A stretch of DNA of 64,000 nt from a virus, in the IMG/VR virus record IMGVR_UViG_3300007504_000003, positions 32,001-96,000 of that record; one strand, given 5' to 3'. The translations under genes and the position numbers were made by a program. Numbering within the stretch: position 1 is the stretch's first letter; each line of letters starts with the position of its first letter. Below are positions 5,409 to 59,571 of this stretch, one piece after another. The notes below the pieces were generated by a model. The model ran no database searches and was not told the origin of the DNA. It saw only the letters and a program-made list of their open reading frames with translations.

Positions 5409-5410
5409 GG

Positions 5411-5995: not shown

Positions 5996-6015
5996 TCTCT
6001 TAGAGGAGGTGCCTC

Positions 6016-7894: not shown

Positions 7895-7903
7895 GAGAGA
7901 GGT

Positions 7904-8515: not shown

Positions 8516-8518
8516 TCG

Positions 8519-8531
8519 ATATTCGGTCTAT
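8519..8531 (+). promoter_or_regulatory. putative late promoter motif TA-N6-YTAT
   Basis: ATATTCGGTCTAT, intergenic, upstream of 8563. Confidence 0.5.
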
Positions 8532-8562
8532 TCAGGGCCAGGAGTAGAAACCCTGGATAGAC

Positions 8563-8877
8563 GTGAGCACGATCCTCTCAGTTCATCGAGTTGTCCTCGC
8601 CCGCACCGTGGCTCGACGGTGGCTGGAGGCTCAGGCTCGCCCTGAGTACCGGGTGAAGGTCTTCTTCAATGGTGAGCGAGACGGGCGGGGTGTGGGGAAG
8701 CTCCTGCATCTTTACCGGGATGGGAAGACCAAGGTCGGCGGCGTTGAGCCCATCTTGGACCTCGGGATCCGAGAAGAGTTCGATCATCTCGTACTTTGGT
8801 CCGAGGACCAGGAAGCGATGGTTCGTCTCAGCGAGTGGTTTGAGAAGAAGGGCTACGAGACCACCGGAGTCTGGTAA
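8563..8877 (+). CDS. hypothetical protein with N-terminal tag TVARRWL
   Basis: ORF; tag at 8605-8625. Confidence 0.65.
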   Translation: MSTILSVHRVVLARTVARRWLEAQARPEYRVKVFFNGERDGRGVGKLLHLYRDGKTKVGGVEPILDLGIREEFDHLVLWSEDQEAMVRLSEWFEKKGYETTGVW

Positions 8878-36717: not shown

Positions 36718-37664
36718 GCAGTATCACCGCTGGTACCTGGGGCTACGAGCCCTGGGCGGGCGACGCTCAGGAGGACAACCTGAGCGCGGTCCTGAAGACC
36801 TTGAAGAAGGGGCCGGCATACAAGAAGCTGCGGGATCTCCGGCCAAAGGCGAAGGATCTGAAGGACGAGTCCCCGGTTCGCCAGATCCTCCTCCCCTGGG
36901 ATTGGGTGGGTGAGGTGTACCTCGTCTCAGACGCCCTCCAGGGTGTCCCTGAGAGCCTTGTGAAGCACGCCCTGGAGTTCGTAGAGGGGATCGAGGAACA
37001 CCCCGCCTACGAGGAATTCCTGGCTTCTTGGAAGGAGCCTGAGGAGTTCCCAGCTATGCGTGAGCGGGTGGAGGCGGACCTCCGTCAGGCGTTGGATTTC
37101 AGCCGTGATGGGAGGGTCAGGCTGACTATCCCTCCTATGGGTCGGCTGGCGAAATACCGGCAACCACCGCTAGGCCCCCGCCAGGATCTTGTGGACAAGA
37201 TTCGTTACCGAGTGCGGTCCAACAGTGATGGGATTGTCATCGCTCTCTATTCTGGGAGGCGTTCAGCGGGAGCGATGGTCGCGCACTGGAAGAGGTTCCC
37301 CGGGGACCTTTGCGTCTCGGATATCGGGATGCTCTCGATCACGGTGACTCCCACGCCCCAGCGGATCTTGCAGGTGTATACGTCAGGCTTGGAAGAGGGG
37401 TTCCGAGGGCTGGGATATGGTCGGGCGATGTATCAAGCGTTGATGGCGGAGGGCTGGAAGCAGGAGGGCCGCCCGTTTTTCCTGACGCCGATGTGGTGTA
37501 GCTATGGATCAGGCACGTCGGCTATGGCGATGCGAGTCTGGGATTCGCTGGCTCGACAGTATCCTTCCAGCGGCAAGGTGATTGCGGTGACGGGTCCCGT
37601 GAAGCCGGGTGTCCGGACTTCTGCGGGCGTCGTAGCGAATCGCTGGTTGGGGCTTCATGAGTGA
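36714..37664 (+). CDS. unknown N-domain + GNAT domain, C-terminal tag
   Basis: FRGLGYGRAMYQ; VVANRWL at 37629; ATGA overlap at the start. Confidence 0.72.
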   Translation: MSSITAGTWGYEPWAGDAQEDNLSAVLKTLKKGPAYKKLRDLRPKAKDLKDESPVRQILLPWDWVGEVYLVSDALQGVPESLVKHALEFVEGIEEHPAYEEFLASWKEPEEFPAMRERVEADLRQALDFSRDGRVRLTIPPMGRLAKYRQPPLGPRQDLVDKIRYRVRSNSDGIVIALYSGRRSAGAMVAHWKRFPGDLCVSDIGMLSITVTPTPQRILQVYTSGLEEGFRGLGYGRAMYQALMAEGWKQEGRPFFLTPMWCSYGSGTSAMAMRVWDSLARQYPSSGKVIAVTGPVKPGVRTSAGVVANRWLGLHE

Positions 37665-42372: not shown

Positions 42373-42888
42373 ATGGTCCGTTCCGCCCTCGATTACCAGT
42401 CTCTTGCTCGCGATTTCAGCGAGGGAGACATGGTGTCCGTGGTCCGGACCCCAAACTCTCGGGGTCGGGTGACCGAGGTCTACCAGGGGATCGGGATGGT
42501 TGACGTGAAGTTCCCCACGGGGACTATCCGTTACCCGGTGGAAGACCTCATGCGGCTGGACCAGAGCAACGCGGAGGTGGCTCCTCCGAAGGACCGGGAA
42601 GCGTCCCGTGCCCCCAACCCGGAGAGGGTTGCTAAGGCGTTTGCTCGTAAGGCGATCTATTGGGCTTCCCGAGATCGCCAGTACCGGGCAACCAGGGGCG
42701 AGCAAGACTCTCGCAGCTACGCCTGTCCTCGGTGCGGTTCGTCCCTGAAAGCCATGATCTACAAGCGGGAAGAGGGCCGGAGCCAGCGGCTCTATGGCTG
42801 CTCTGGGCACGAGTGCTCGTTCTTGATCAAGCCCACAGCCATCCATGGGTGTCACCTCAATGGTTGTGATGAGGAGGCTGGGCTCTGA
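42373..42888 (+). CDS. SH3-like + zinc-ribbon protein
   Basis: EGDMVSVV...GRVTEV...VDVKFP; CPRCG...CSGHEC. Confidence 0.65.
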   Translation: MVRSALDYQSLARDFSEGDMVSVVRTPNSRGRVTEVYQGIGMVDVKFPTGTIRYPVEDLMRLDQSNAEVAPPKDREASRAPNPERVAKAFARKAIYWASRDRQYRATRGEQDSRSYACPRCGSSLKAMIYKREEGRSQRLYGCSGHECSFLIKPTAIHGCHLNGCDEEAGL

Positions 42889-45800
42889 TGGCTTTCCGTA
42901 AGTTCGCCAACGCCAGGGTCACACACCCGCGAATCTCTTCCCGGGGCTGGGGTCGGGTGCGGACTGCGGCTCGGAAGAAGGGCGGCGCGTCCCCGATTGC
43001 CTCTCATGATCTCGCCTCTCGGGCGTCAGAGATTCTCGGGGAGCGGTTCGACCCTGATCGGTATCTCCTCTCCCACGCTACGATCGTGGCTTCGGTGGAT
43101 GTGGAGGAGGTCCAGGGCGCCAAGCTGGGCAAGGTGCGGGTGGGCAGCAAGACCATCGATCGTCGATGGGGTGCTTACTACATCAATCCGGCGTGCTCTG
43201 ATCTGGTCAACAACAACGGGGATGCGTGGTCGAGGAAGGTGCTCCTGGCGAGCTACCCCACGTTCATTGGTTCCCACAACTTCTGCTTCGCGGCTGGTAC
43301 CGGCATTCTCCTGTCGGATGGCACTTACAAGGCTATCGAGGAAGTCCAGGTGGGGGACCGTGTGGTAACCCATACGGGTGCTTGTCAGGCAGTAACTCAT
43401 AAGTTCGAGCGGGATTACGAAGGGGACATTCACGCTATCGGATTCGACCGATTTAAGGATCCGGTGTTGGTGACGGGCAACCATCCCTTCCGAGGGATTC
43501 AAGTCTCTTCGGCACCCGTCAAACCACGGTCAGGTTCCAAGGCGTCCAGCACTACCCGTTATTACAAAGATCAGGTGGCTAAGGCTCTACGGGGCGACAA
43601 GCACTCTCTCAAGGATTTCAAGGCTGAATCCACTTGGGTTCGTGCTGATCAGATGCGGGTAGGGGACCGGGTTCTGGGTCCCGTCCGAGAGGCTGGCACT
43701 CATTCGGATCCGGGCCTAGCTGAGTTGCTAGGGTACTACTTGGCTGAGGGATGCCCTTTGTCTCCGAGTTCGGATCAGGGCTTCGTGCTCGCCTTCGGGC
43801 ACCACGAAGTTGATCTGGCTCGCCGTGCTGAGTCTCTGGCTTACGCAGTGCTGAACCCAAGCTCCGTGACGGTGGCTACGGTTCAGACCGGCATTCAAGT
43901 GCGGGTATACTCCGCGGAGGCATCCCGTCGAATGGTGTCCCTGGGCGGGCACCGGGCTGCGGATAAGCGGCTGTCGGAAGAGGTTTTCTCCTGGGATGAG
44001 GAGTCCTTGCTCCGTCTCCTGGCCGCTTGGTTGGCTGGGGACGGGAACCTCCATAAGGCCACCCTTCGTCTGCGTGGAACCACCACCTCTGAAGCTCTCG
44101 CTCAGCAAATGCAGCGGGTGGCTGAGCTGGCTGGTGTCAAGTCTTTTGTTATGTTTGAGCCCCAGAAGATTGGGGAAGTCCAGAGTCGTGTTGTGATGAC
44201 CATCGGGGGCGAAGATAGGTCCTTTGATGTAGTTCCTCGTCACCACGTCTGGACGCTGGTTGTCTCCAAGGGCTCTACTTCGCAAGTGGCTTCGGCAACC
44301 CCAAGGTGGGGCACCCCGTTGTTTGATGCGACGGCGAAGCGGAAGCGGTCGGAGTTGGCTTGGTGGGGTGGCTGCCGCACTCATCGAGTGGCTTCTAATG
44401 AGACTCTTCCTTTCCGTGGAAAGGTCTACAATATTGAGGTCGAGGGCGATCACAGCTACGTTATCGATTACGGAATCGCAGTACATAACTGCGAGCATGT
44501 CCAGGTAGAGGAGCTGTCCAAGGGCAGGATTATCGACGCCGCCGCGAGGGATATCGGTCGGTCGGTCTACGTGGATATTCTGGTCGCGACTGACCGGAAG
44601 CACACCCAGCTTGTCACGGATATTGAATCCGGGAAGATGGGCACGCTCTCGATGGGCTGCACAACCCAGACGACTCAGTGTACGAAGTGCGGCAACGTCG
44701 CCGTGGATGACACGGATACCTGCGACTGCATCCGGTACCACAAACTCGATACCTTCTACGACAGTCAAGGTCAGCGTCGAGTCATCGCGGAGCTGTGTTT
44801 CCCTCCTGGCATCCGAGTCTCAATCGGAGATGGGAGTCGGGTAGCCATTGAGGATCTCCAAGTTGGGGATGTGGTTCTCTCCCACACGGGGCACCGACGT
44901 GAGGTCGTTGAGATTTTCGAGCGGGACTTTGATGGTGATCTGGTAGCCTTGGACTTGGTGGGTCTCCCGCAAACGCTACGGAGCACCCCCAACCACCCCT
45001 TCTGGGTTATCAGCCAGAATGATGTGTGTGCCTGTGGTTGCGGCATCAAGCTTAAGAGCGTCCGCAAGACCTTTGCACGGGGGGAATATACTCGTAAGTA
45101 TGCCCCAGGGCACAACCCTACGAATGTCGTGTCCTTGGATGCGCCCTCTTTTGACTTTGTCGAAGCCGGGAACGTGAGGGTTGGGGACATGGTGGCGATG
45201 CCGGCCCCGCAGGGTGTGGTGGTTCCGGAGGATGTGGATGAGGACAGGGCACGGCTCCTGGGATGGTTCTTGGCTGAGGGCTGCTACATCAAGAAGGATG
45301 GGCAGCGGGTGGGCATTCAACTCACCCTTAATGCAGAGGATGAGGTGGGTGTTGCGGAAGCCCTGGCTTCCCTCCTGAGCAAGTGCTTTACTCCCGAGTT
45401 CAACCTCCAGAAGGCCACGAAGGTCCGGCTGTTGGAAGCTCTGGCGATCCCCGCAACGACTCGACAGGTTTCTCGTAGATTGGGGTTGCGAGAGAAGACA
45501 ATTCAACTGGCTTTGTCGGGGCTCAGGTCAGAGGGACTCGTTTCGAGTCGGAGGCTTCGTGCTTCGGAGAAGACGCAATTCGGGGCCTCCGGGACCAACG
45601 CTCTCGTGTGGGAGCGGCTGAGTGGTGCTCCGGCTGATTGGTTTAATCTAGCCCGGGTTCATTGCTTTGACCGGGTTGCGGAGCCCGGCAAGAAGTTGGT
45701 CGTCTGCTATACGAACCGAAGTGCTGCCGACTGGTTCTATAAGCACGCCGGGGAGTATTCCGGTTCCAAGAGGCTCTCGGAGGATGCAATTCTCTGGCCC

Positions 45801-46949
45801 AAAACCCTGCAAGCATCGATGCTTCGATCTTACCTCTGGGGGGACGGCACCGTTGACACCCGAGGTCGCCATTCTGTGTCGTCCGTGTCGGAGACCCTGA
45901 TCAGCCAGATGCAAGTGGTGGCTGCTCGGTGTGGTTTCTGGACCCGACGGCAAGTGATTTTCGAGGGTCAATGTGTAGAGCTTCAGCAAGTCGTCAACGG
46001 GACAGCGGTGCCTGTTGGGTCTGACGGATTCCGTGCTCGTCATGAACTGCACATCCAGCCTTCTGATGAGGCCACGGCGTTTTTCGGATTGACTGAGGTT
46101 GGTAGTCGAGGTTTGACCCCGGCATGGCGTACCCATGAGGGGTACATGCTGTACCGGGTCCGGGATGTGTGGACGGAGTCCTATAAGGGGAAGGTTCACA
46201 ACATCGCAGTGGACACCGATCATTCGTATCTGGCGGAAGGGATTGCCGTACATAATTGCGGGCATCATTCCCTGGATGACACTGGCGGAGTGGTGTTCAT
46301 TGAGGCTTCCTGGGTGGGGAATCCTGCGTTCAAGGGAGCCGTTCTCCGGAACGTTCTTTCTCCTACTCAGGCGATTCCCCACAACAAGACTCTCCAAGAT
46401 GTGCTCTCCTCTCCTCCCCCGACCTGGACTGAGGGGGGGATGCCGCGAGCGGCGGCTCTAGCCTTCGACTTCGGTGATCCGGAGGATGGCGAGGAAGAGC
46501 AGGATTCTCCGAAGTCCCCTGCGCGTCCCTTGGACAAGACCAAGGAGAAGCTCAAGGAGAAGCTCATCAAGGATGTTCGTGAGGACATTGAGAAGGATTT
46601 GGAGGACGAGAAGCCTCCATCCTCGGATGAAGTCCACACCAACGACAATCTTCACAAGCAAGCTCAGGAGCGGGTAGAGAGGGTTCTCCTCCGTACCGCG
46701 AGTTCCGAGACCGATCTCATCAACAAGGTCGCTCTTCTGGATGCTGAGTTTGGCTGTGTTCAGCCTCGGGACACCTACCTGACTGCCCTCCGGGTTGGAG
46801 GGCAGGCATACCGCGACAACCCGGCTCGCTTCCTCTTGGCGTGTCAGGATCACACGGGACGCCGCTTTGGTATCCCAGAAGTCAAGGTGTTCCGACGCCT
46901 TGGAAGTCTCCTCTCCCTGCTGGAGAGCCCCCCCAACAAGACCCCCTAG
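42888..46949 (+). CDS. prohead (capsid maturation) protease with two inteins
   Basis: Spliced exteins HNF/CEH...KGRIIDA...TLSMGC...C-rich...EL/C...FIEASWVGNPAF fit an HK97/herpes-fold protease; sits just upstream of scaffold and MCP; about 464 aa spliced. Confidence 0.72.
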   Translation: MAFRKFANARVTHPRISSRGWGRVRTAARKKGGASPIASHDLASRASEILGERFDPDRYLLSHATIVASVDVEEVQGAKLGKVRVGSKTIDRRWGAYYINPACSDLVNNNGDAWSRKVLLASYPTFIGSHNFCFAAGTGILLSDGTYKAIEEVQVGDRVVTHTGACQAVTHKFERDYEGDIHAIGFDRFKDPVLVTGNHPFRGIQVSSAPVKPRSGSKASSTTRYYKDQVAKALRGDKHSLKDFKAESTWVRADQMRVGDRVLGPVREAGTHSDPGLAELLGYYLAEGCPLSPSSDQGFVLAFGHHEVDLARRAESLAYAVLNPSSVTVATVQTGIQVRVYSAEASRRMVSLGGHRAADKRLSEEVFSWDEESLLRLLAAWLAGDGNLHKATLRLRGTTTSEALAQQMQRVAELAGVKSFVMFEPQKIGEVQSRVVMTIGGEDRSFDVVPRHHVWTLVVSKGSTSQVASATPRWGTPLFDATAKRKRSELAWWGGCRTHRVASNETLPFRGKVYNIEVEGDHSYVIDYGIAVHNCEHVQVEELSKGRIIDAAARDIGRSVYVDILVATDRKHTQLVTDIESGKMGTLSMGCTTQTTQCTKCGNVAVDDTDTCDCIRYHKLDTFYDSQGQRRVIAELCFPPGIRVSIGDGSRVAIEDLQVGDVVLSHTGHRREVVEIFERDFDGDLVALDLVGLPQTLRSTPNHPFWVISQNDVCACGCGIKLKSVRKTFARGEYTRKYAPGHNPTNVVSLDAPSFDFVEAGNVRVGDMVAMPAPQGVVVPEDVDEDRARLLGWFLAEGCYIKKDGQRVGIQLTLNAEDEVGVAEALASLLSKCFTPEFNLQKATKVRLLEALAIPATTRQVSRRLGLREKTIQLALSGLRSEGLVSSRRLRASEKTQFGASGTNALVWERLSGAPADWFNLARVHCFDRVAEPGKKLVVCYTNRSAADWFYKHAGEYSGSKRLSEDAILWPKTLQASMLRSYLWGDGTVDTRGRHSVSSVSETLISQMQVVAARCGFWTRRQVIFEGQCVELQQVVNGTAVPVGSDGFRARHELHIQPSDEATAFFGLTEVGSRGLTPAWRTHEGYMLYRVRDVWTESYKGKVHNIAVDTDHSYLAEGIAVHNCGHHSLDDTGGVVFIEASWVGNPAFKGAVLRNVLSPTQAIPHNKTLQDVLSSPPPTWTEGGMPRAAALAFDFGDPEDGEEEQDSPKSPARPLDKTKEKLKEKLIKDVREDIEKDLEDEKPPSSDEVHTNDNLHKQAQERVERVLLRTASSETDLINKVALLDAEFGCVQPRDTYLTALRVGGQAYRDNPARFLLACQDHTGRRFGIPEVKVFRRLGSLLSLLESPPNKTP
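43284..44489 (+). mobile_element. intein 1 with LAGLIDADG endonuclease (402 aa)
   Basis: CFAAGT...VHN/C; LLGYYLAEG and LAAWLAGDG. Confidence 0.9.
44796..46256 (+). mobile_element. intein 2 with LAGLIDADG endonuclease (487 aa)
   Basis: CFPPG...VHN/C; LLGWFLAEG and LRSYLWGDG. Confidence 0.9.
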
Positions 46950-48464: not shown

Positions 48465-49127
48465 ATGGCTTTGCTTGGACAGGCGAGCGGTGCGTGGACT
48501 GAGTCGAGCAGCGCCCTGAGGATCCTCTACAAGGGGATCAACAACTCGGTGGGCATCCTGACCGATGATAGCTTCACGCAGACCAACCCGCCGATCGTCA
48601 CCGCAACCTCTACCATCGCTTCCAACGTGGACACCAGCCTCCTGGGCGTCCTCAGCGGCTCGGTGGCCTTCACCCGCCCCGATGAGGGCAGCAACTACAT
48701 CGGCGGCAACGCCGAGGGTCTCGCGACCGCCAGCCACGAGCTGATCGTCCGTCCCCTGGGGCTGTTCATCAACAACGCGGCGGGCAACTCTTTCGAGAAC
48801 CAGCCGGCGTCCGCCAGCGGCAAGGGGCCCTACGTCTCCGGCCAGGGCACCTACGCCAGCCAGCTCTTTGAGACCCAGCTCCTCAGCGGCACCGGCCTCA
48901 CCGGATCCGCTGGCGACGATATCAGCTACCTGACGGGCCTCTCCCTGGTGGCGAGCCGCAACGGCTACCTCCAGCCGTCCTACGATCTCACCAACACTGA
49001 GACGATGGACGTGGCTTCTGTGGCTGCCGAGGTCGAGCACGGCCAGTCGGCGTCCACCGTCATCGGAATCCTCAAGATGCCCTCGGATGCCACGCAGGCC
49101 GAGATCGTCTTCGACCAGCGCATCTGA
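48465..49127 (+). CDS. probable head decoration/minor capsid protein
   Basis: Between scaffold and MCP; G/S/T-rich; high-expression codon bias. Confidence 0.6.
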   Translation: MALLGQASGAWTESSSALRILYKGINNSVGILTDDSFTQTNPPIVTATSTIASNVDTSLLGVLSGSVAFTRPDEGSNYIGGNAEGLATASHELIVRPLGLFINNAAGNSFENQPASASGKGPYVSGQGTYASQLFETQLLSGTGLTGSAGDDISYLTGLSLVASRNGYLQPSYDLTNTETMDVASVAAEVEHGQSASTVIGILKMPSDATQAEIVFDQRI

Positions 49128-49140
49128 GGAGGGAGACACA

Positions 49141-50016
49141 ATGGCAAAGGTAAGCAACGCTGTCAAGCAGCGGATCATCAGCGAGTACATCAAGACCCCC
49201 CGCGGTCGTGCTCGCCTCGCAGCCTCCATGACGCAGCCCCTCCGGATGCGTCGGGACTACTCGGCGGTCGGTCGCAAGACCTTCCTCGTCGAGGATCTCC
49301 CCGATGGAGCCCTCCCGATCTACGACAAGGATCCGGAAGTCACCGCCTACGTGGTGGGCGAGGAAGGTGAGAACATCCTCGCCATCCAGAAGCCGCGTCG
49401 GGTGCTCTTCCCCCTGTTCGAGATCGCGTCGAACCCCGAGATCCCGCTCACGCAGATCAAGGAACGCCGGTTCGACATGATCGACCGGGCCCAGGTGCTC
49501 GCGAAGTCGCAGGTCCAGGCCGCCGAGGACGAGCGTGTCTTCGCCGTGCTGGACGCCATCGCGACCAACGGCTTCGACTCCGTGGCGGGCGGCACCAACG
49601 CCGATATCCCCGTCATCGCGCCGCTGTCCGCCGCGGTCATCGCTGACGCGATGGGTCTCGTCGAGCGGCACGACCTCCACGCCGCTCGGATCTACATGAA
49701 CCAGCGGGACTTCACGGATATCCGGAAGTTCGGCCGCGACGTGTTCGACCCCGAGAGCCAGCGGGAGCTGGTCCGCACCGGCCTCGTCGGCACCATCTAC
49801 GGCTGCCAGATCGTGACCTCCCGCCTCGTCCCGGTGGGCACGGTGTACGTGTGTTGCGATCCCGAGATGTTCGGCCGCATCCCCGTCCGCACCGAGCTGA
49901 CGGTGCTCTCGGCCGACGACCCGAAGGCCCGGACCATCGGCTTCAGTATTTTCGAGAACCTCGGTCTGGGTGCCTACAACCCCCGGGGCCTCGCTCGGAT
50001 GACGATCACTCGCTGA
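49141..50016 (+). CDS. major capsid protein (HK97 fold)
   Basis: 291 aa; GAGGAGGG RBS; position; GTIYGCQIVTSRLVPVG C-terminal pattern; followed by a strong hairpin. Confidence 0.82.
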   Translation: MAKVSNAVKQRIISEYIKTPRGRARLAASMTQPLRMRRDYSAVGRKTFLVEDLPDGALPIYDKDPEVTAYVVGEEGENILAIQKPRRVLFPLFEIASNPEIPLTQIKERRFDMIDRAQVLAKSQVQAAEDERVFAVLDAIATNGFDSVAGGTNADIPVIAPLSAAVIADAMGLVERHDLHAARIYMNQRDFTDIRKFGRDVFDPESQRELVRTGLVGTIYGCQIVTSRLVPVGTVYVCCDPEMFGRIPVRTELTVLSADDPKARTIGFSIFENLGLGAYNPRGLARMTITR

Positions 50017-50037: not shown

Positions 50038-50073
50038 CGAGGCCCGGCCTTCCCACCAGGAGGCCGGGCCTCG
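50038..50073 (+). terminator. 13-bp hairpin, probable terminator of the capsid operon
   Basis: cgaggcccggcct / aggccgggcctcg; the T-rich tract starts about 12 nt later. Confidence 0.6.
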
Positions 50074-50181
50074 CCGCGTCTGGTCTTTACTTAATGTTCC
50101 TTTCTGTTTTTGTTCTCGGACAAAGTATACACATGTCGCAAGGGGTGTATACTTCTGCTCGAATGAGCGGGATATGGTACA

Positions 50182-52083
50182 TTGATTACCGAAGAAGAAT
50201 TACGGCGTCTCTACTGCGACGATTTGAAGTCCGAACAAGAGATTGCGGAAGCCTTTGGCACCTATCAGGTGAAGGTGGGTCGGCTTCGCCGCAAATTTGG
50301 TATCCCGACCATCAGTAAGGCCCAACGACTTGAACGTCAGTTGCCACCTTTGACGACATTCCAGGTGGAACTCCTGGTGGGTTCGCTCTTGGGTGACGGG
50401 CACATGAAAGAGTCGAGTAGGGCTTCAGCTCGGTTTATCGAACGTCATGGAGAGTCTCAGGCTCCCTACCTCATGTGGAAAGCGGGCTTGCTGGGTGACT
50501 ACATCTCCAGCACCTACCCCACCGTGAAGCGGCTACCTGACGGTCGCGAGTTTCATGGCATGGAACTGAACACTAAAAGTTGCCCCCAGCTCCGAGGGCT
50601 GTTCGACTTGTTTTACCAGAGCGGGAAGAAGGTGTTTCCCGCCAGTCTCCCAGATCTGATGACACCAATGGTTTTGGCGGTCTGGTACCTGGACGATGGT
50701 TCCTTAGCCTCTAACTATCACCCCAGGATTCACTTCGGTCTCGGCTCCAGAAGCCTCAAACGGGCTGTGAAAGCCCTGAGGCGGTTGGGTCTGAAACCAG
50801 ATCATCGTGGTGAGAATGGGGACCAGATGATTTCGTTCCCAGGACAGGGCAGGAAGTTCTTTGACTTGGTCCGGCCACACATCCCAGATTGTATGAGCTA
50901 CAAGGTCCCCAGGACGGATTCACCTCGTCGTGTTCAGGACCGGAATGCGTCTCAGGTGACCCCTGAGATGGTGGGCCGGCTTTACTCTGATGGGATGTCT
51001 TTGGGTGCCATCGCCCGACGATACGGGGTGGGCCGCTCCACAGTCCATCGTCGTTTGAAAGCCGTGGGTGCTACACCACGTCGGATGGGGAGGCCCAGAG
51101 CCGGATACACGGTGGAGTCCGCTACTGTCCTCCTCGGAAATCTCGATCCGATTCTGGGTACTGACCAGTTGCTTGAGGAAGCCTTGCGGATCCTCAAAAA
51201 GACTCCGTTTCCTTTCCCGGCTCCGATGGACGAGACGGAGGCTCACAAGGAGCTGGCTCGGGTTCAGAAGTCCAAATCCGGGATCACTTCCTGGACCCCT
51301 GTTGGGGTGCGGGTGTGTAACAGCCTCTTCCCCAACAGGTACAAGGCTACCTACAAGAGCAACGTCTCTGCGTGGGAGGGCTGGCATGACGAGAAGCACC
51401 TTCGTAGGGCGATCAGGTTCCAGGTTCGGGTGGGAGATCCGGTCATCCCGAAGAGAGTTTTGAGAGCCTTGACCGCCAACTGTCGGACGCCCTCGGTCTT
51501 CCGTCCCGTGGTAGCCAGATACCTGTACGAGACCTACTGCCCCTCTGGTGGGGTGGTCTGGGATCCCTGCTCAGGGTACGGTGGGCGGCTCCTGGGGGCT
51601 CTCGCGGCGGGTGTTGGGAAGTATATCGGGACGGACGTGGAGCCTGAGACAGTGGGGGGGAACCGTCGTTTGGCTGCTCTCCTGGGCATGGAAGACCGGG
51701 CTGAGATTCATCTGAACCCCGCTGAGACGTTTGATCCCGGTCCTGTGGACTTGGTCTTTACGTCCCCTCCCTACTTCAACCTGGAGCTGTACGGGAGATC
51801 GCGGGATCAATCGTCGGTGACGAATTCTGGTTTTGAGGAGTGGGTCTCTGGGTTTCTGGTTCCGGTCCTCGTCACGGCGTACAGGAGGCTCCCAGATGGC
51901 GGTGTGTTGGTCCTGAACGTCACCGATGTTCGCCAGGGTAGGAAGACCTTCCCCCTGGTCGAAGCAGCCATCAGGGAGGCTGTGACGGCGGGTTTCAAGC
52001 ATGAGGACACCCTCCGGATGCCTTTGGCGAGCTTAAACCGGAAGAACGCCTCGGAGCCTTTGCTGGTGTTCCGACGACGATGA
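50182..52083 (+). CDS. HTH + LAGLIDADG endonuclease + HTH fused to amino-DNA methyltransferase
   Basis: LVGSLLGDG and LAVWYLDDG; MTase motif I WDPCSGYGG, motif IV FTSPPY; one continuous ORF. Confidence 0.85.
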   Translation: MITEEELRRLYCDDLKSEQEIAEAFGTYQVKVGRLRRKFGIPTISKAQRLERQLPPLTTFQVELLVGSLLGDGHMKESSRASARFIERHGESQAPYLMWKAGLLGDYISSTYPTVKRLPDGREFHGMELNTKSCPQLRGLFDLFYQSGKKVFPASLPDLMTPMVLAVWYLDDGSLASNYHPRIHFGLGSRSLKRAVKALRRLGLKPDHRGENGDQMISFPGQGRKFFDLVRPHIPDCMSYKVPRTDSPRRVQDRNASQVTPEMVGRLYSDGMSLGAIARRYGVGRSTVHRRLKAVGATPRRMGRPRAGYTVESATVLLGNLDPILGTDQLLEEALRILKKTPFPFPAPMDETEAHKELARVQKSKSGITSWTPVGVRVCNSLFPNRYKATYKSNVSAWEGWHDEKHLRRAIRFQVRVGDPVIPKRVLRALTANCRTPSVFRPVVARYLYETYCPSGGVVWDPCSGYGGRLLGALAAGVGKYIGTDVEPETVGGNRRLAALLGMEDRAEIHLNPAETFDPGPVDLVFTSPPYFNLELYGRSRDQSSVTNSGFEEWVSGFLVPVLVTAYRRLPDGGVLVLNVTDVRQGRKTFPLVEAAIREAVTAGFKHEDTLRMPLASLNRKNASEPLLVFRRR

Positions 52084-52084
52084 G

Positions 52085-52909
52085 ATGGTTCGGTATGCTC
52101 CCTATGGGAGACCTCCAGTAAACGCTGAGGTCTCCCTATGTCTGACTCCACCCTCCCCTCTCGCTTGTTCAGGTAGAGCCCACAAGTTCGACGCCTGGGG
52201 TCGTATGGGGAGACAGGAGAAGCCTGTGACCCCAGGAGAACTATCCAGTCCGCCTCAGCCCCGTCGATCCGTGAATGCCGGCATTCCTGGCATGATGCCC
52301 TTGTTGCCCGGCGGTAATTTCTTGTCGGGTCAGATCACGCAGGTCATGGGTTCCTTTGATCTGCTCAGGTGGTTCCGCGAGATGGTGTGGCGGCACCATG
52401 CCGAGCAGGAGGGTTCCCCGGTGGTTCACGTCACTTCCCGAGGGTCTCTCGTTTCGACTCGGGTGGCCGGTTCAGAGGATTGGGTCAAAGGAGCCCGGGT
52501 TGATGTGGTGGAGAACTTCTGGAGGGCAACCGATCTCGCGGTAGCGGCGGGCTCTCCGCTGGTACTCGCGGACGTGGAATTTCTCCCGAAAATCACTCAC
52601 CCGGCGGCACCCGGGCCTGTTTATAGGGCCAAGATGACCTCGGTGTTTGTCCAGAATATTGGCCCTCGCTTGGAATCTACCGGGGCAGCCTTACTCGTCT
52701 TGACGGAAGCGAAGGATCACCGAAACGTGGCGGGGTCAAGGGTGTGGGGCTTCGCATCCTCGGAACGTTTCTTCTTGTCGCGAGAAGACGGTGGGATCAA
52801 GATCGAGTGCCTGAAGCCCCGGAGCGGGCTTTCTTTTGGGGCTTCCGTGGTGGTCTGCCCGGAGACCGGCTTGCTGCGCTCTTCCTCTTTGCCGGAGGCA
52901 GGAGCGTAG
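52085..52909 (+). CDS. degenerate RecA-like protein lacking Walker A (true start probably 52271-52292)
   Basis: LPGGNFLSGQITQVMG, LVLAD, AGSRVWGFASSERF parallel RecA motifs. Confidence 0.45.
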   Translation: MVRYAPYGRPPVNAEVSLCLTPPSPLACSGRAHKFDAWGRMGRQEKPVTPGELSSPPQPRRSVNAGIPGMMPLLPGGNFLSGQITQVMGSFDLLRWFREMVWRHHAEQEGSPVVHVTSRGSLVSTRVAGSEDWVKGARVDVVENFWRATDLAVAAGSPLVLADVEFLPKITHPAAPGPVYRAKMTSVFVQNIGPRLESTGAALLVLTEAKDHRNVAGSRVWGFASSERFFLSREDGGIKIECLKPRSGLSFGASVVVCPETGLLRSSSLPEAGA

Positions 52910-52910
52910 C

Positions 52911-53366
52911 GTGGATAAGCTCACGGAGACTCTTCCTCACCCGATCCCGGCTGACAGCTTTCTCCGGTGTCAAGCGTGTGGGATCACCTACGACGATATC
53001 TGCTACCTGAACCTCTGGTGGGAGGCTGACGAGGACGATGAGTGGGAGGATACCTCCCCTGCCGTCTTGGTCTGCAAAGCGGACCCGTGCAAGCAGGTGA
53101 TTCTGGACCACGAGCGGCTGTATGCAGAGATGCCCTGGTCTCGCGGGGGCCCCGGTCGGTTTATGCTCGTCTGCGGGACTTGTCCCCACCGGGAGGGGAC
53201 TACATGTACCCACCCCAAGCTGACTGCGAATGGCGGGGAAGGGCTGCTGGTTACCGCGAGCCAGATTCTTCCTTCGGTCCATATCAACCGAGGTCCCGGT
53301 CGTTCCGGGTGGTTGCCCTTTACTCCAGCGACGAAGTGTGAGGGCAACCCGGACGGAGGGGCTTGA
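52911..53366 (+). CDS. Cys-rich hypothetical protein
   Basis: CQAC, C..DPC, CGTC...CTH. Confidence 0.55.
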   Translation: MDKLTETLPHPIPADSFLRCQACGITYDDICYLNLWWEADEDDEWEDTSPAVLVCKADPCKQVILDHERLYAEMPWSRGGPGRFMLVCGTCPHREGTTCTHPKLTANGGEGLLVTASQILPSVHINRGPGRSGWLPFTPATKCEGNPDGGA

Positions 53367-53441
53367 ACTTTTGGTGTAATCTGTCTTACATCAATGAACC
53401 GTCGGCTTCCGGTTTGGGATCAGTTGTGGTCTCATGCGTCC

Positions 53442-54062
53442 ATGAGAATGATCACCCTCTTGGCAGCCTTCCTCTTCACCTTTATCCCCGTTGCGGGGGC
53501 CAGCGGGAGCTATTCCGGGGTCTCCTTTCAGGACGATGAAGTCTCGTTCTCGGTCAGCGAGATCAACGGGCTTCTGGTTCTGAGTATCGGTGAAGCCTTT
53601 GAGCAGATCTGGGAGTCCTACGACGCTGACCACAGCGAGATGACCACCCCGCTCCAGGTGCCTTCCACCGGGACTTTGGTGAGTCTGGATCCTGAGGCGG
53701 TTTACTACCGCTATGAGGCGGGGGAGGATCCGGAAGAGGTCTCCGTTGATGAGATGCTGGGCTTCCTGGGCAGCGAGGTGGTTTGGGTGTCCAAGGTGCT
53801 TCCGGACGGCACCTATGCCAATCTCTTCGTTTGCTCTTCCGGGATGGCGTTTCCGAAGGAGTACGACTCCTCGGGCGGGCCTGGGTCGGGCATCTGGGTA
53901 GGCAAGTGCGGTGGGGTGTTGTACTCTGCGACCAAGCCTTCCCAGGCAGGGGGTACGGGCTCCTCGATGGGCTCCCTTCTGTACAGCCCGATCGTGACGG
54001 TGAGCAATCCCTGTTGGTTTGAGCTATGGCCGGGAGTCCATGAGCCTCCCTGGTGTGGCTAG
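53442..54062 (+). CDS. putative exported protein
   Basis: MRMITLLAAFLFTFIPVAGA signal-peptide-like start; acidic body. Confidence 0.55.
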   Translation: MRMITLLAAFLFTFIPVAGASGSYSGVSFQDDEVSFSVSEINGLLVLSIGEAFEQIWESYDADHSEMTTPLQVPSTGTLVSLDPEAVYYRYEAGEDPEEVSVDEMLGFLGSEVVWVSKVLPDGTYANLFVCSSGMAFPKEYDSSGGPGSGIWVGKCGGVLYSATKPSQAGGTGSSMGSLLYSPIVTVSNPCWFELWPGVHEPPWCG

Positions 54063-54063
54063 C

Positions 54064-55056
54064 TTACAGGAATTCCGGCCCCCGTTGGTGGAATCGGACT
54101 CGGGTGCTCCCCCAGGGATTCCAGATCCGAATCCACTCTCGCAGCGTCTTGGAATAGACGTCCACGAATTTGATTGAAGCCTCGTTCAAGTTCGCTTTCA
54201 TGTCGGGCACGGCAGCGGTGGCTGATACACAAGCGATCAGGGCGAAACTCCTCTGTCTCAAGTTGGATAGGTTGGTCCCGGCTTCATACTCCGCCCGAGC
54301 GATCGACACCCCCCAGCGGTCACAGCCTCTAAGGGAGCAGATTTTGCTGAAGAGGGCTCGGCCCAGGGCTTCCTCTGGCATGTAGTCCCCGACCCCGATC
54401 TTCAGAGATCGAAGGTTCGGGCCAGGGTCGGACCGGGTTCTGTCGGCTTCTTCTTCCACGAGTCGGAGTTGAAGGGCTCGGGTGACTGCGTTCGCGGAAT
54501 CCTTGTAGAAGGTCCCCTTGTAGAAGACGATCTCTCGCTCTCGCAGCCCCACTTGACCTAACTGACCCTGGAGTTCAAGCAGCGGTGTAGGTTCAGCCCC
54601 ACCACCGCGGACGGTGTACCACTGGAGGACGTCGGAGGTCTCGACTTTAAGGGAGCATCCCAGCCCGGAGGAGCAGAAGGCGGGGTCCAGGTCAATGGTC
54701 CCTGCTTTGGGATCCATCTTGCCCCCCGCACCTTCCAGGTGAGCGAAACTTCGCCCCTTGCCCTGAATCTCAGCCATGAACAGCTCGTGGCCCAGACGCT
54801 TCCCTCTTTGGGCCTCGCCCCATTGAGCTATCTCGGTTCGGTTGCTCCCCCATTGAGAACCGTAGGCTCTCTCTCCTGCGATGGAGTAGGAGCCTCCTTC
54901 GATTTTCCCTGTGGAGAGAATTCGACGTAGCTCTTCCCCGTCGAAGACACGGAAGAGCTGGATGGGGGAGAGAAACTTTCCGATAGCAATGGCCCCGCCG
55001 AATTGCTTCCGGGCTTTGTTTGTCCCTCTGGGGGACACTTGGACTTTGACCGCCAT
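54064..55056 (-). CDS. hypothetical protein (possible ART-like N-region)
   Basis: ATG 55056; LFRVFDGEELRRILSTG pattern only weakly suggestive. Confidence 0.5.
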   Translation of the reverse strand: MAVKVQVSPRGTNKARKQFGGAIAIGKFLSPIQLFRVFDGEELRRILSTGKIEGGSYSIAGERAYGSQWGSNRTEIAQWGEAQRGKRLGHELFMAEIQGKGRSFAHLEGAGGKMDPKAGTIDLDPAFCSSGLGCSLKVETSDVLQWYTVRGGGAEPTPLLELQGQLGQVGLREREIVFYKGTFYKDSANAVTRALQLRLVEEEADRTRSDPGPNLRSLKIGVGDYMPEEALGRALFSKICSLRGCDRWGVSIARAEYEAGTNLSNLRQRSFALIACVSATAAVPDMKANLNEASIKFVDVYSKTLREWIRIWNPWGSTRVRFHQRGPEFL

Positions 55057-55082
55057 ATTCGGGCCCTCATATAGGAGCCCGA

Positions 55083-55095
55083 ATAATTGGTTTAT
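55083..55095 (+). promoter_or_regulatory. putative late promoter motif TA-N6-YTAT
   Basis: ATAATTGGTTTAT upstream of 55123. Confidence 0.45.
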
Positions 55096-55122
55096 TGTCC
55101 TTGAGAGGTGTCTGGAGAAGTA

Positions 55123-55947
55123 ATGAGATCTCTGCGTTCTAGCGTCATCCGGCTGGCTGCTTCCTTGGAAGCAGGAGACCCGCTTCGGGGTCATCTTGTA
55201 GAGGCAGCAGCGGGCTTTGAGGAGTTGACGAGATTCAATTTCTCTTCCGTCTTGCAGTCCTTAGTGGCTCAGATGCTCCGAGAGAACACGGGTACGCTCT
55301 ATGTAGTGGACGATGACGGCGTCACCTCGGAGCGGGCTTTGAAGGACAAGTTGGACGAGGCACTCTCAGGTGCCTCGGTTCGGCCTACTTCCGGTATGTG
55401 GACCGGCCGGGGGCCTAAGCCCCGGAAGCCGACTCTTCCTCGGGTAGAGGGGTTCAAGGCTCGCTATGAGCAGCTCTTGGATGCGGAACGTATGGACTGG
55501 AGGAACAAGACGGTAGAGGTGCAGGCTATCCGGTCACCCAGGACTCGGAGGCCCGGGTACAGGGTCACCTGGGAATTCAAGCGTCCGGCTGCCCAGCCGA
55601 TGCAGTCTCTTGATTTCCGTCGCCTTGTGACGATCCACTATGGTTCAGGTCGAGAAGCTTTTCAGCAGGTTCTCCCTGAGATTTTGAGGTACCTGAGCAG
55701 TCAGCGGGGCGTACAGGTTGTTCGGGAGTCGGCTCCCGTGGCATTCACTTATGAGGGAGAGGAGTTCGGGCTTCACTTTTCTGTCAACGCTTACGGGAGC
55801 AACAACGTGCTCTCGATCGTTCGTCCCGACCCTCATGAGGTGATTTCTCTTTCCGTGCTGGGTCACTGGTCGGTGCCCACCCTCGGGGACCTCCCGAGGG
55901 TGGTCTGGGAGGAGTTCGTCAAGAACCTCGCGGCTAAGAACCGCTAG
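55123..55947 (+). CDS. hypothetical protein with N-terminal IRLA tag
   Basis: LRSSVIRLAASLEAGDPLRGHLV. Confidence 0.65.
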   Translation: MRSLRSSVIRLAASLEAGDPLRGHLVEAAAGFEELTRFNFSSVLQSLVAQMLRENTGTLYVVDDDGVTSERALKDKLDEALSGASVRPTSGMWTGRGPKPRKPTLPRVEGFKARYEQLLDAERMDWRNKTVEVQAIRSPRTRRPGYRVTWEFKRPAAQPMQSLDFRRLVTIHYGSGREAFQQVLPEILRYLSSQRGVQVVRESAPVAFTYEGEEFGLHFSVNAYGSNNVLSIVRPDPHEVISLSVLGHWSVPTLGDLPRVVWEEFVKNLAAKNR

Positions 55948-56549
55948 GCGGCCTCGACCTGGAAGGTGCCGCCCGCCTGACCCTTGAGCCGGAGCACCTC
56001 TCCGTCCTCGGTCTCGAAAGTGTGGGTCTCTTCCCACGTCTTCGGACAGAAGGTGCTGTCGGTACGTCGCCCGGCCTTCAGACGCTCCCAGAGCGTCGAT
56101 CGCCCTCGCGGGGGTCCCGGGAGGCTCCGGAACTGAATCGAGGTGCCTGGGAGGCACTGGACCGTCCGAGGTCGCCGTGCGGGGATCTTCGCCGGGACCT
56201 GCTCCGGCTCCGCCTTGACGGGTTCCGGCTTCGGCGGGCTCGGAGCTTCGGGCTTGGGTGTGGCCTTCTTCGGGCCGAAGTGCTTCCGGCAGAAATCCCG
56301 CTGCTGGAGCCCCAGGCGGAGGTAGGTGACGATTACATGGTCGTAGATGTGCTCGCAGATGATCCCGAGAAAGTCGTGGGTCAGCCAGTACCGGGTGTTC
56401 TGGCTCCGGTTCCCTCGTCGGCCCAGGAGGACCATGACGAGGTCCGGGCTCAGCTCAGTGGCGACGTGGCGGGCCGCGAGCAGGGCTAGCGGTGTGGCTT
56501 CCGGGTGATGTATCTGGAATCGCTGGATCGCGTGTCGTCCGACTCGCAT
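55944..56549 (-). CDS. hypothetical protein
   Basis: AGGAGG RBS; Pro-rich linker. Confidence 0.6.
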   Translation of the reverse strand: MRVGRHAIQRFQIHHPEATPLALLAARHVATELSPDLVMVLLGRRGNRSQNTRYWLTHDFLGIICEHIYDHVIVTYLRLGLQQRDFCRKHFGPKKATPKPEAPSPPKPEPVKAEPEQVPAKIPARRPRTVQCLPGTSIQFRSLPGPPRGRSTLWERLKAGRRTDSTFCPKTWEETHTFETEDGEVLRLKGQAGGTFQVEAA

Positions 56550-56661
56550 GGGATACCTCCTATTTTCGTATACGACTGGCCCGGAGATATTTCCCTAAAA
56601 ATGTCCGGGGTTGCGGCCGGTAGATCCCTGATAGGTTCCACCAGTGTAGAGGAGCCCGCTG

Positions 56662-57549
56662 ATGGGATTCAGCAATCAAGAGCGGATCAACCTGCTTACC
56701 AAGGCGCTGGCCGCCGGGGTGTTGGACGCTAATTCGGTTTCTTCCTGGTATGAGACCTTCTTCCCGTTTCGGTTCATCAACGAGGCGGGGACGGTGTGGA
56801 TGGAGCTGGGGACGCTCAGGGGCTTCCCAGCCGCGAATCTGTCAGCCGCCCAGACGAACGCGGCAGACCCGGCTCTCTCCACAATTTTGGAGGATCGTTC
56901 CGCAGCCGCGAACGCGGTTCGTTTAACCGCGGTGACGGGGACCAACGGTAGCACTTGGGTTGCTCACAGCACCTACAACGACGCCTCTTCAGCCGTCCTG
57001 ACCAACTGGCTCCTCCCGCAGCTTGTTCCGCAGTCTTCTGGGGTGCCTTCCAACGGGTACGCGATTCGCTTGTATGAGGGCGACCCGGCGAGCGGCGGCA
57101 CGGAGATCTCTACGACCTCAGGGACGACCGGGACGGGTGACGAGAAGACTGTCGGCTGGGTCTGGAACTACGCGAACGGGATGCTGCTGCTCTCTGACGA
57201 CTTCAAGGGGAGCGTCTCGGACCCTTACGTGGTCGGGTTCCGGTATGTCGGACGAACGGCTCAGGATACGGAGGATGACCTCCAGACTCTTGAGGCGAGC
57301 GTAGCGACGACCCAAGGAGAAGTCAGCACTCTCCAGTCGGAAATGGCGACGGCTCAGTCAAATATCACGACTCTTCAGTCAGAGATGACCGCTGCGGAGG
57401 CGGATATCGACTCCCTGGAGTCTGATATGACGACAGCGCAATCAGATATTACGACGCTTCAAAGCGACGTAACAACGCTTCGGGACGACGTGGATGCCCT
57501 TCAGCAATCGGCTAATGGGATGGTGGTTCGTTTCGTAAAGGGCGGGTGA
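56662..57549 (+). CDS. virion structural protein with C-terminal trimeric coiled-coil repeats
   Basis: 14-aa periodic TLQSEMATAQSNI-type repeats at about 57290-57500. Confidence 0.7.
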   Translation: MGFSNQERINLLTKALAAGVLDANSVSSWYETFFPFRFINEAGTVWMELGTLRGFPAANLSAAQTNAADPALSTILEDRSAAANAVRLTAVTGTNGSTWVAHSTYNDASSAVLTNWLLPQLVPQSSGVPSNGYAIRLYEGDPASGGTEISTTSGTTGTGDEKTVGWVWNYANGMLLLSDDFKGSVSDPYVVGFRYVGRTAQDTEDDLQTLEASVATTQGEVSTLQSEMATAQSNITTLQSEMTAAEADIDSLESDMTTAQSDITTLQSDVTTLRDDVDALQQSANGMVVRFVKGG

Positions 57550-57552
57550 TCT

Positions 57553-59571
57553 ATGCCGCTTGGACAAGCTGGAGATCCCTTCACCTTCCACGTCCTCTGG
57601 TTGGACGCGGAAGGGAGCCCGATGACGGTGACCTCTCCTGCGATCGATATCTTCTACTTCGATAACGCTGGGGATAGGCAGAATCTTGTCACCAGCGGGG
57701 TGATGACTGCCGTGACCGGGGACACGGGGCGGTATGCCTACGTCTACACCGTCAGCTCTTCCTACGACGAGCCCTCACCTGTCTACGGGTTGATGACGGC
57801 GACGGAGACGGCGACGGGGTTGGAGCTGGTGGAAGAGATGGTGGTCGATGTGATCGACCCCAACGCGAGCACCCTGACGGTGAAGAACGAAGGGGTGGTG
57901 CTCAACACCAGCGTGACTAGCATCGATTTCATCGGGGTCGATGTGGAGTCCGACAACCCTTCTGGAGACGCGATCCGGGTCTTTATCCCGCCTCCCAGCT
58001 ATCAGTCTCACTGGAATACTTCGGACGGGGACAACGGGAACCAGTCGGTCACGGAGTCGATCTCCAGAACGACGACTCGGATCCCCGACCCCAGCGGGGG
58101 TGAGGGCTCCCCATTCAAGACAGGCGGGTGGGCTGACTCCAATCAGGACACCACGCTGAGCACCTCAGCGACCTTCACGACTCCGGATGTGACCACGGGG
58201 TTCGGTGGGGACTCCACCATGACAGTGAATGTCTACGACGCAGACGGCTCTACTGTCTTGGAGACCTTCACTACGGCAGCCCTGGACGGGGATGGCTCGT
58301 ATGACGCCCCTAGCGGGAACATCAGCGTCACCTTGTCCAGCTACGGGTCGGATACTCTTCAGTGGAAGGCGAAGGCGTCTGTCGTCGTGGACTTCGACGG
58401 GGTTTTGTCTGACGCTGGCCTCACGGGGGGACGCTGCCACGCTGAAGTGATTCACACCACGGACAGCGGAACCGACGGTACCGGTCCCTACACGTATACT
58501 CAAGACCCGTTCTTTCTGGACAGCAACCCCAGCACCCCAGCGATTAACGGCACCGTTTCGGTGTCCGAGACCGCTGGGCAGGTGTTAACCAAGCATCTCT
58601 CTGGGGTGGAATACTACATCCTCAGCTCGCAGTTCACAGCGTCGGTGACGGATATCGACGGCTTGAACGCCAACAGCATCAGAACGAGCGCGAACCTCGT
58701 CCTGACCGGGTCGGAGTACGGTCTCTCTTCCCTCTCCCACAGCCCCTTCGGGACAGGTAGTGCGAATTTCTCGGGTTGGTCATCTGCGGAGAACCAGGAT
58801 GACGTGTCCTACAGCAACACTGCCTGGGCGATCACCCAGGGGAGCTATCGCTATTTCGGCTCGACCGCGAATATCTCCAGCTATCCCCGGGACCCTTGGG
58901 CTAACGGCTCTACTCAGAACTCGTCCAATGCCTCGATTCTGATCGACACCTACACGTCCAGCTCAAGTGCCCTGGTCGAGAACTTTGACGACGAAGATCT
59001 CCGCCAGGACAGCGGGTTCAACAGCGGGGCCGCAGCGGGCAACTGGACCAGTACGACAGCTCTGGTTTCCGGGGAGGGCTTTGTCCACAACGGGAAGCTC
59101 ATGTCTCCGGAGGCAGCCTCCTACCAGGACTGGTCCAGCTTTCAGCCTTCAGCCGGCGGCGCCAACCCAGACTACTCCGCCTTGTCGGTTCCCGTGAGCT
59201 ATTACCGGACTTTTGAGGACACGTCAGGGGATTCTCGCTCCAGCTTTTCGGTGGTGTTCAGCGGGGCCTTTGTGTCCGACGCGACGACGGATCTCGCCAA
59301 TAGCGACCTGGAGATCTTTGTCAGGCGGGTGTCTTCGCCGCTTGGCGATTCCGGCCCGAGTGCGAATCCGCTCAACCTCCACGGGTCGCTGTACAACTTT
59401 TCCTCATTCGACGACGGGGTCACCAACGGTGATATCCGAGAGGGGTCGTCGTCTGGGAACACCGTGAATGGCACCTTCGGGGGGCTCCCTTGTGAAGATG
59501 GGATCCATGTCCACGTCCGCATCAACGACGCGACGATTCAGATCGACAGCATGACGGTGACCTTCTTCTGA
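57553..59571 (+). CDS. large Ser/Thr/Gly/Asp-rich virion (tail/baseplate-like) protein
   Basis: Beta-rich composition; N-domain paralogous to 60322..60639. Confidence 0.65.
   Translation: MPLGQAGDPFTFHVLWLDAEGSPMTVTSPAIDIFYFDNAGDRQNLVTSGVMTAVTGDTGRYAYVYTVSSSYDEPSPVYGLMTATETATGLELVEEMVVDVIDPNASTLTVKNEGVVLNTSVTSIDFIGVDVESDNPSGDAIRVFIPPPSYQSHWNTSDGDNGNQSVTESISRTTTRIPDPSGGEGSPFKTGGWADSNQDTTLSTSATFTTPDVTTGFGGDSTMTVNVYDADGSTVLETFTTAALDGDGSYDAPSGNISVTLSSYGSDTLQWKAKASVVVDFDGVLSDAGLTGGRCHAEVIHTTDSGTDGTGPYTYTQDPFFLDSNPSTPAINGTVSVSETAGQVLTKHLSGVEYYILSSQFTASVTDIDGLNANSIRTSANLVLTGSEYGLSSLSHSPFGTGSANFSGWSSAENQDDVSYSNTAWAITQGSYRYFGSTANISSYPRDPWANGSTQNSSNASILIDTYTSSSSALVENFDDEDLRQDSGFNSGAAAGNWTSTTALVSGEGFVHNGKLMSPEAASYQDWSSFQPSAGGANPDYSALSVPVSYYRTFEDTSGDSRSSFSVVFSGAFVSDATTDLANSDLEIFVRRVSSPLGDSGPSANPLNLHGSLYNFSSFDDGVTNGDIREGSSSGNTVNGTFGGLPCEDGIHVHVRINDATIQIDSMTVTFF

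Follow-up and report, generated by a model that had tools for sequence, protein, structure and literature searches.

A LAGLIDADG endonuclease–methyltransferase fusion gene in a polymorphic slot behind the capsid gene of huge phages

A 64,000-nt stretch of viral DNA (the window; positions 32,001 to 96,000 of IMG/VR record IMGVR_UViG_3300007504_000003) carries, directly behind its major capsid gene, a single gene that joins a LAGLIDADG nuclease resembling I-SceI to a predicted DNA methyltransferase (MTase). This fusion gene is probably a free-standing, horizontally exchanged homing-endonuclease cassette carrying the MTase, neither intron-borne nor intein-borne, and its slot, directly behind the major-capsid terminator in a clade of huge phages, is best explained as a hot spot of recombination. 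We favour this reading because the gene is dispensable, promoter-bearing and sporadic at a fixed site, with intact nuclease chemistry and fast turnover. The source is a 126-kb viral contig estimated to be 28% complete, and therefore derives from a phage of roughly 450 kb.

The original prediction, made from the DNA letters and a list of open reading frames (ORFs), described one ORF with a helix–turn–helix (HTH), a two-motif LAGLIDADG unit, a second HTH and an amino-MTase. The ORF itself, Pfam and PHROGs confirm that 50182–52083 is a real gene with these four parts, which are laid out as follows:

50182–52083 (+): the whole fusion gene, 633 amino acids, TTG start; AlphaFold2 (AF2) model with a mean predicted local distance difference test (pLDDT) score of 93.1
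50182–50337 (+): N-terminal HTH module, residues 1–52, of a type common to phage homing endonucleases; PHROG matches at residues 3–81
50344–50922 (+): monomeric two-motif LAGLIDADG core, residues 55–247, from the I-SceI alignment, Foldseek and residue conservation
50953–51069 (+): second HTH, residues 258–296, resolvase/HTH_7-like (HTH_7, E = 3.9e-7; HTH_23)
51070–51111 (+): flexible linker, residues 297–310, the modular junction of both halves; pLDDT < 50 at residues 303–305
51112–52080 (+): amino-MTase module, residues 311–633, a helical N-subdomain followed by a Rossmann core

The frame runs on the plus strand with zero internal stops. No start other than TTG 50182 is usable: there is an in-frame TGA at 50164, and homologues already conserve residues L10 and Y11. 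Pfam places LAGLIDADG_2 (PF03161) at residues 63–199 (E = 5e-25, 88.8 bits against a cut-off of 25) and HTH_7/HTH_23, a resolvase-type HTH, at residues 263–294; PHROGs contributes matches to a LAGLIDADG homing endonuclease family and to DNA methyltransferase families. The window holds one LAGLIDADG_2 match and one N6_N4 match only, both in the fusion gene. The N-terminal HTH, three helices in the AF2 model, is matched by PHROG families annotated as HNH endonuclease or DNA-binding protein, and the second HTH is common to nuclease-only relatives and to relatives built of HTH and MTase. As originally noted, there are no intein splice residues: no Hint or Intein_splicing family in Pfam matches the fusion ORF, whereas the neighbouring ORF at 42888–46949 matches five Hint-type families. 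An intein reading of the fusion ORF was rejected because Hint blocks are missing and the nuclease lies at the N terminus, behind an HTH.

The nuclease half closely resembles I-SceI. Its two LAGLIDADG motifs, LLGDG (residues 69–73) and YLDDG (residues 169–173), end at the acidic residues D72 (50395–50397) and D172 (50695–50697), and the active-site basic residues of the core are K150 and K241. In an alignment of the core with I-SceI residues 22–229 (E = 2e-5), D72 and D172 fall on I-SceI D44 and D145, and K150 and K241 are the equivalents of I-SceI K122 and K223, which we take, from nickase work, to be its active-site lysines. Foldseek matches the AF2 model to I-SceI (5a0m; E = 1e-11, template modelling (TM) score 0.80 normalized to the target) and also to I-WcaI (6x1j), with target-normalized TM scores of 0.77–0.80 for the two enzymes. 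Active-site conservation in both halves was scored over 113 full-length members of the family. Of these, 112 retain D72 and all 113 retain D172, K/R150 and K241, so the acidic residues called intact from the single sequence are intact across the family. The same four positions are unbroken in all 18 nuclease-only relatives.

The MTase half carries motif I (DPCSGYGG, 51562–51585, from residue 461), motif II (D485) and motif IV (TSPPY, 51760–51774, with SPPY starting at 51763, residue 528); the two positions given in the original prediction, 51562 and 51763, are exact. Motifs I, II (as D/E485) and IV are each present in 113/113 members. Because the active-site residues of nuclease and MTase alike are near-invariant, both halves look catalytically competent. 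Motif I precedes motif IV, a circular permutation of the order found in beta-class N6_N4 MTases and in the Pfam model, and the N6_N4_Mtase (PF01555) match at residues 522–600 scores 26.1 bits, below the cut-off of 26.7. Among MTase-family relatives, 66 of 78 match N6_N4_Mtase at E ≤ 0.001 (best E = 1e-19), and the beta-class N4/N6 DNA MTase of PDB 2zie matches this half by sequence in permuted order. Judged by gathering score and motif order, the half is a permuted relative of N6_N4_Mtase and not a canonical member, although it presumably functions as those enzymes do.

Modelled alone, the MTase half reaches a pLDDT of 95.1 and a predicted TM score of 0.92. The closest solved folds are TrmN (Z = 19.7), Trm11 (Z = 18.9) and Trm14 (Z = 18.6), enzymes with a [D/N]PPY motif and the order I–IV; generic Rossmann MTases score lower, at Z = 15–17.5. 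Structure aligners favour enzymes that share the I-then-IV order, and we set aside a substrate assignment by fold, since TrmN and Trm11 come out on top but barely above generic MTases under this bias. The SPPY motif is typical of N4-cytosine enzymes. From this motif and the DNA-binding nature of the fused partners we infer DNA methylation; the half is most likely a DNA amino-MTase acting on N4 of cytosine or N6 of adenine.

The fusion is no isolated construct. A search of 5.8 billion proteins returned >120 full-length homologue clusters at 37–67% identity from independent metagenomes, most of them about 630–670 residues long and many on contigs of 100–436 kb. A further homologue on LR745208.1, a 485-kb uncultured phage in GenBank, covers 99% of the protein at 29% identity. 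At locus L001 of this record, a single 1229-residue frame (4975–8661 of the locus) runs through a pair of LAGLIDADG_2 domains, the MTase and a CGNR zinc finger; it amounts to the fusion with a doubled nuclease. Divergence is equal in both halves of the family, with mean pairwise identities of 0.48 and 0.49 and a distance correlation of r = 0.56.

Each half also leads a life of its own. The nuclease unit is HTH–LAGLIDADG–HTH, residues 1–305, and nuclease-only forms reach residue ~305 of the fusion protein. The MTase half used alone as query retrieved 6240 representatives at E ≤ 0.001; in nearly all of 150 listed representatives (326 to 1560 residues) it is C-terminal, a few longer ones extending past it, and its N-terminal partners comprise HTH arrays, LAGLIDADG_2/3, Ros/MucR, CGNR zinc fingers and ParB_N. 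It also stands alone, as in P0133, which begins at query residue 302; P0130 begins at residue 255 and consists of the second HTH and the MTase, and P0149 has both HTHs (the N-terminal module 63% identical) and the MTase without the nuclease core. Pfam and PHROGs recognized no other type of nuclease fused to this MTase in L026, L033 and other long relatives. At least 31 changes of architecture fall on a tree of the MTase domain (264 tips), and in a tree of the nuclease half (175 tips) nuclease-only forms sit at no fewer than 8 separate places among fused ones. By these comparisons the fusion, the commonest form of the family, is old and widespread, with a junction made or broken many times, and is not a one-off local invasion. 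The original suggestion that a homing endonuclease invaded the 5′ end of an MTase gene in frame is thus the best fit as regards separable halves, a linker and a mobile cassette, and fails as regards a single local event.

The fusion gene has a well-marked position and, apparently, its own signal for transcription:

49087–50016 (+): gene for the major capsid (head) protein, conserved and bordering the slot on its left (phrog_2522 major head protein, E = 1.4e-52)
50038–50073 (+): intrinsic-terminator-like hairpin closing the capsid transcription unit (15-bp G+C-rich stem, minimum free energy −36 kcal/mol, z = −4.5)
50126–50153 (+): sigma-70-like promoter TATACA-16-TATACT inside a 9-bp inverted repeat, from a promoter scan

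The likely true start of the capsid gene is ATG 49138. The hairpin, which the original prediction had reported, begins 22 nt past the capsid stop and gives way to a T-rich tail that ends near 50110; an analogous hairpin follows the capsid stop codon at every related locus. We read 50126–50153 mainly as the putative promoter of the cassette itself, because TTGAC-N17-TATAC[T/C] stands at this point in fusion-type relatives; it could also be an operator, possibly autoregulatory. A repeated operator was rejected, as the palindrome is unique in the window and its RNA-fold z score is only −2.1. The gene had been described as sitting alone. The promoter-like site agrees with this, and the next ORF, which begins 2 nt past the fusion stop codon, does not. 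The genes from 52085 to 55947 encode 274, 176, 222, 376 and 279 residues and have no Pfam or PHROG match.

To place this position among relatives, we gathered 64 viral loci through the capsid protein (58–82% identity) and scored the genes 3′ of it. Downstream of the slot, these relatives share a conserved block, c1–c2–c6–c8, which did not turn up in the following 6 kb of the window, and the window genes from 52085 to 59571 have no homologue in any of the 64 loci. Synteny through the downstream genes of the window itself therefore failed, and the right border of the slot is defined in the relatives and cannot be placed in the window. Between capsid gene and block, the contents vary: the full fusion, a ~310-residue HTH–LAGLIDADG–HTH gene without MTase, tandem LAGLIDADG genes, the MTase behind unrelated N-terminal sequences, a gene of the uracil-DNA glycosylase (UDG) family, or nothing, as in L010, where c1 follows the capsid gene directly. 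Further nuclease-only relatives in the same slot, 46–50% identical to residues 1–305, are sometimes tandem and have a PAPS_reduct/DUF3440 gene behind them. In three distant homologues (45–48% identity) the fusion gene is likewise the first after the capsid gene.

Two comparisons expose the cassette most directly. First, two nuclease-only loci (L028 and L035) and a locus with the UDG gene (L029) are collinear at 88–94% DNA identity outside the cassette, up to 65–70 nt past the capsid stop, and collinearity resumes directly after the cassette. Second, capsid proteins that are 94–97% identical flank elements that are only 44–59% identical, and in one pair the values are 93% and 30%. The history of the element is decoupled from that of the flanking capsid gene, and its turnover is faster than that of its flanks. 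Inference of the target site from alleles with and without the element went as far as mapping these breakpoints: at ≤59% mutual identity the slot elements have diverged too far for a common target or for co-conversion tracts. No copy was found anywhere in a complete 437-kb relative with terminal repeats, nor in two relatives that are 85–86% complete. The element is dispensable, occupies its fixed slot sporadically and has discrete boundaries as a cassette.

Several loci have features of their own. At L071 (5927–7144) and L072 (6931–8172), the capsid gene precedes tandem LAGLIDADG genes and then the PAPS_reduct/DUF3440 gene, which is IbrA/DndC-like; the post-capsid region looks like a DNA-modification island. 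The alternative occupant at L021 (6966–7628), L029 and other loci is a 221-residue gene of the UDG superfamily (PF03167, E = 1.6e-14); the breakpoints at which it and the nuclease-only gene replace each other are identical. L003 (GCA_900089805.1, FLOH01000042.1, 436,626 bp) is a huge phage of the same clade inside an NCBI assembly, with a capsid protein 91% identical; its 717-residue fusion gene is followed by genes for a Dam-family MTase and an Eco29kI-like restriction endonuclease. In L052, whose slot is empty, the sequence ~80–150 nt past the capsid stop, behind the capsid terminator, has a tRNA-like appearance (GGAGAGTACGGGAATCGAACCCGTA...).

We propose that, when phages with and without the cassette infect together, the nuclease would cut the latter at a long site close to the slot, and that repair of the cut would copy the cassette into the recipient. 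The MTase would travel as fused cargo that pays for the upkeep of the element: its methylation could shield phage DNA from host restriction and perhaps cover the site of the nuclease itself as well. Either benefit would, on this proposal, make the fusion the commonest and most long-lived form.

Four points weigh against this proposal. Replacement and turnover of the cassette could also come from ordinary illegitimate or homologous recombination in a hypervariable region. The closest relative of the fusion protein is only 67% identical, so that among the homologues there is no near-identical cassette in a divergent background and no documented recent homing event. Across the broader family of this MTase, simple DNA-binding modules make up most of the N-terminal partners, which hints at targeting and not at mobility. 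Lastly, the solved folds nearest to the MTase core belong to enzymes that make N2-methylguanosine (m2G) in tRNA, and its DNA substrate is a presumed one.

The strongest competitor to a homing cassette is an obligate single-chain cut-and-protect system, raised in the original prediction, in which the MTase would methylate a base inside the LAGLIDADG site, so that the carrier is spared and unmethylated DNA of a rival or of the host is cut. The one-chain architecture is there. In favour of this reading, both active sites are kept in 112–113 of 113 members, the halves co-diverge at equal rates, a flexible tether in the AF2 model links the DNA-binding half to the MTase, and fused forms predominate. 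Free-standing homing genes, such as T4 seg and mob, leave their own target undisrupted and so need some immunity, which also speaks for such a system. We nevertheless regard the obligate form as unlikely, because each half also occurs alone: intact nuclease-only relatives (18/18) occupy the same slot on contigs of which those 65–76% complete show no copy of this MTase, and the MTase is found alone or with non-nuclease partners. The original idea keeps some probability for the fused form, though not as an obligate coupling. The search for this MTase elsewhere in nuclease-only phages, which found none, is a weak result given records 31–76% complete and no positive control. The many changes at the junction (≥8 on the nuclease tree, ≥31 on the MTase tree) count against it as well, and LAGLIDADG enzymes have not been described in restriction–modification (RM) systems (PMC9957025). 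A LAGLIDADG-based module of an RM-like or addiction type, the form that cut-and-protect would take, is doubtful to the same degree.

Less probable still is a site-targeted MTase, also among the original suggestions, in which the LAGLIDADG core and the HTHs would serve only as a long-site DNA-binding device steering an MTase that has no recognition domain itself, and the nuclease would be vestigial. In other proteins, HTH arrays, Ros/MucR, CGNR zinc fingers or ParB_N are attached to this MTase module, P0149 retains both HTHs and the MTase without any LAGLIDADG core, and WhiA is a precedent for a LAGLIDADG fold without cleavage (PMC3384342). Unlike in WhiA, however, all four catalytic positions are essentially invariant here, which argues against pure DNA binding. 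The MTase is also a stand-alone family of ~330-residue proteins, and the gene is dispensable and sporadic, as a selfish element would be. The DNA-binding partners elsewhere in the family lend targeting some support, and a vestigial nuclease in the fusion is improbable.

An MTase acting on RNA, for instance making m2G in tRNA or rRNA, would turn the gene into a mobile nuclease linked to RNA-modifying cargo. The TrmN, Trm11 and Trm14 folds (Z = 18.6–19.7) and weak matches to TIGR01177 and UPF0020 point that way. These folds lie only 1–2 Z above generic MTases under an aligner preference for the same motif order, profiles favour DNA N6/N4 MTases (Pfam 66/78, the PHROG families and PDB 2zie), no THUMP or other RNA-binding domain was found, and every fused partner is DNA-binding; we consider this reading very improbable. 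The worries attached to the original prediction, an assembly error or a missed stop, can be dismissed, and so can a fortuitous, functionless read-through of two genes, given one uninterrupted frame, >120 full-length homologue clusters in independent assemblies and strong purifying selection on both halves.

Elsewhere in the window, two ORFs stand out. The 1353-residue ORF at 42888–46949 (+), upstream of the scaffold and capsid genes, has Hint-type, intein-splicing and LAGLIDADG_3 matches at two places and a weak head-maturation-protease PHROG match, and looks like a head-module gene with two inteins. The 1345-residue ORF at 37657–41694 (+) includes the catalytic core of a topoisomerase IB of eukaryotic type (PF01028, E = 3.7e-24), unusual in a phage.

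Homing endonucleases and RM are two classic selfish nuclease strategies, which protect themselves by disruption or alteration of the target and by methylation, respectively. An apparently active I-SceI-type nuclease and an apparently active DNA MTase in one protein may form a bridge between the two. Were the tethered MTase to methylate a base within or beside the LAGLIDADG site, self-immunity would come from methylation and not from target polymorphism, an outcome that we think possible but hardly likely. A methyl-immune homing nuclease of this kind could attack an invariant essential sequence of rival phages, such as the capsid gene, and would be the first LAGLIDADG-based RM-like system. As a source of meganuclease scaffolds, the family comprises hundreds of diverse, naturally occurring I-SceI-like proteins with additional HTH modules; it also supplies natural long-site DNA-binding modules tethered to a methyltransferase. 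For the phages themselves, the post-capsid region is a hot spot for nuclease and DNA-modification cargo.

Among known systems, the nuclease half is closest in kind to I-SceI and I-WcaI, monomeric double-motif enzymes of PF03161: it aligns end to end with I-SceI residues 22–229, and the catalytic Asp and lysine positions match. Those enzymes are encoded in mitochondrial group I introns, whereas the fusion gene is free-standing in a phage and adds two HTHs and a 320-residue MTase. In its genetic setting the cassette recalls seg (GIY-YIG) and mob (HNH) of T4-like phages, which are free-standing homing endonuclease genes. Like these, it is intergenic, promoter-bearing, dispensable and sporadic, sits beside a conserved core gene and is sometimes tandem; it differs in its LAGLIDADG family and its fused MTase, and its homing is predicted from sequence.

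The joining of a nuclease to a [D/N/S]PPY amino-MTase in one polypeptide is shared with Type IIC/IIG enzymes (MmeI, BcgI-like) and with the known GIY-YIG–N-MTase fusions (PMC1564403). Those systems use PD-(D/E)XK or GIY-YIG nucleases, short sites and a shared recognition domain, whereas here the nuclease is LAGLIDADG and the halves are separable. WhiA/DUF199 is a domesticated LAGLIDADG protein tethered to an HTH that has lost its catalytic acids and bases (PMC3384342); fold and HTH are common to both, and the fusion family retains all four catalytic positions.

In a full-text literature search we found no description of the present family and a single precedent for LAGLIDADG in a methylase. 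This closest precedent is the 139-residue non-intein LAGLIDADG domain that Gosselin et al. (2023; PMC9957025) described in Taj_79 and eight further methylases of cluster-F actinophages, where it is read in frame and for which a selfish element and a single-peptide RM system were weighed and the choice was left undecided. As in the present fusion, a LAGLIDADG domain is joined in frame to an orphan phage DNA methylase without intein splicing blocks. The two cases are unrelated in sequence, as no actinophage record matched the fusion protein at E ≤ 1e-5. The actinophage domain is an insert inside the methylase, confined to nine closely related phages of one clan with no evidence of transfer (PMC9957025). 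By contrast, the present family has a ~250-residue two-motif core with two HTHs placed N-terminal to a permuted MTase, and spans hundreds of clusters with repeated gain and loss at a fixed slot after the capsid gene.

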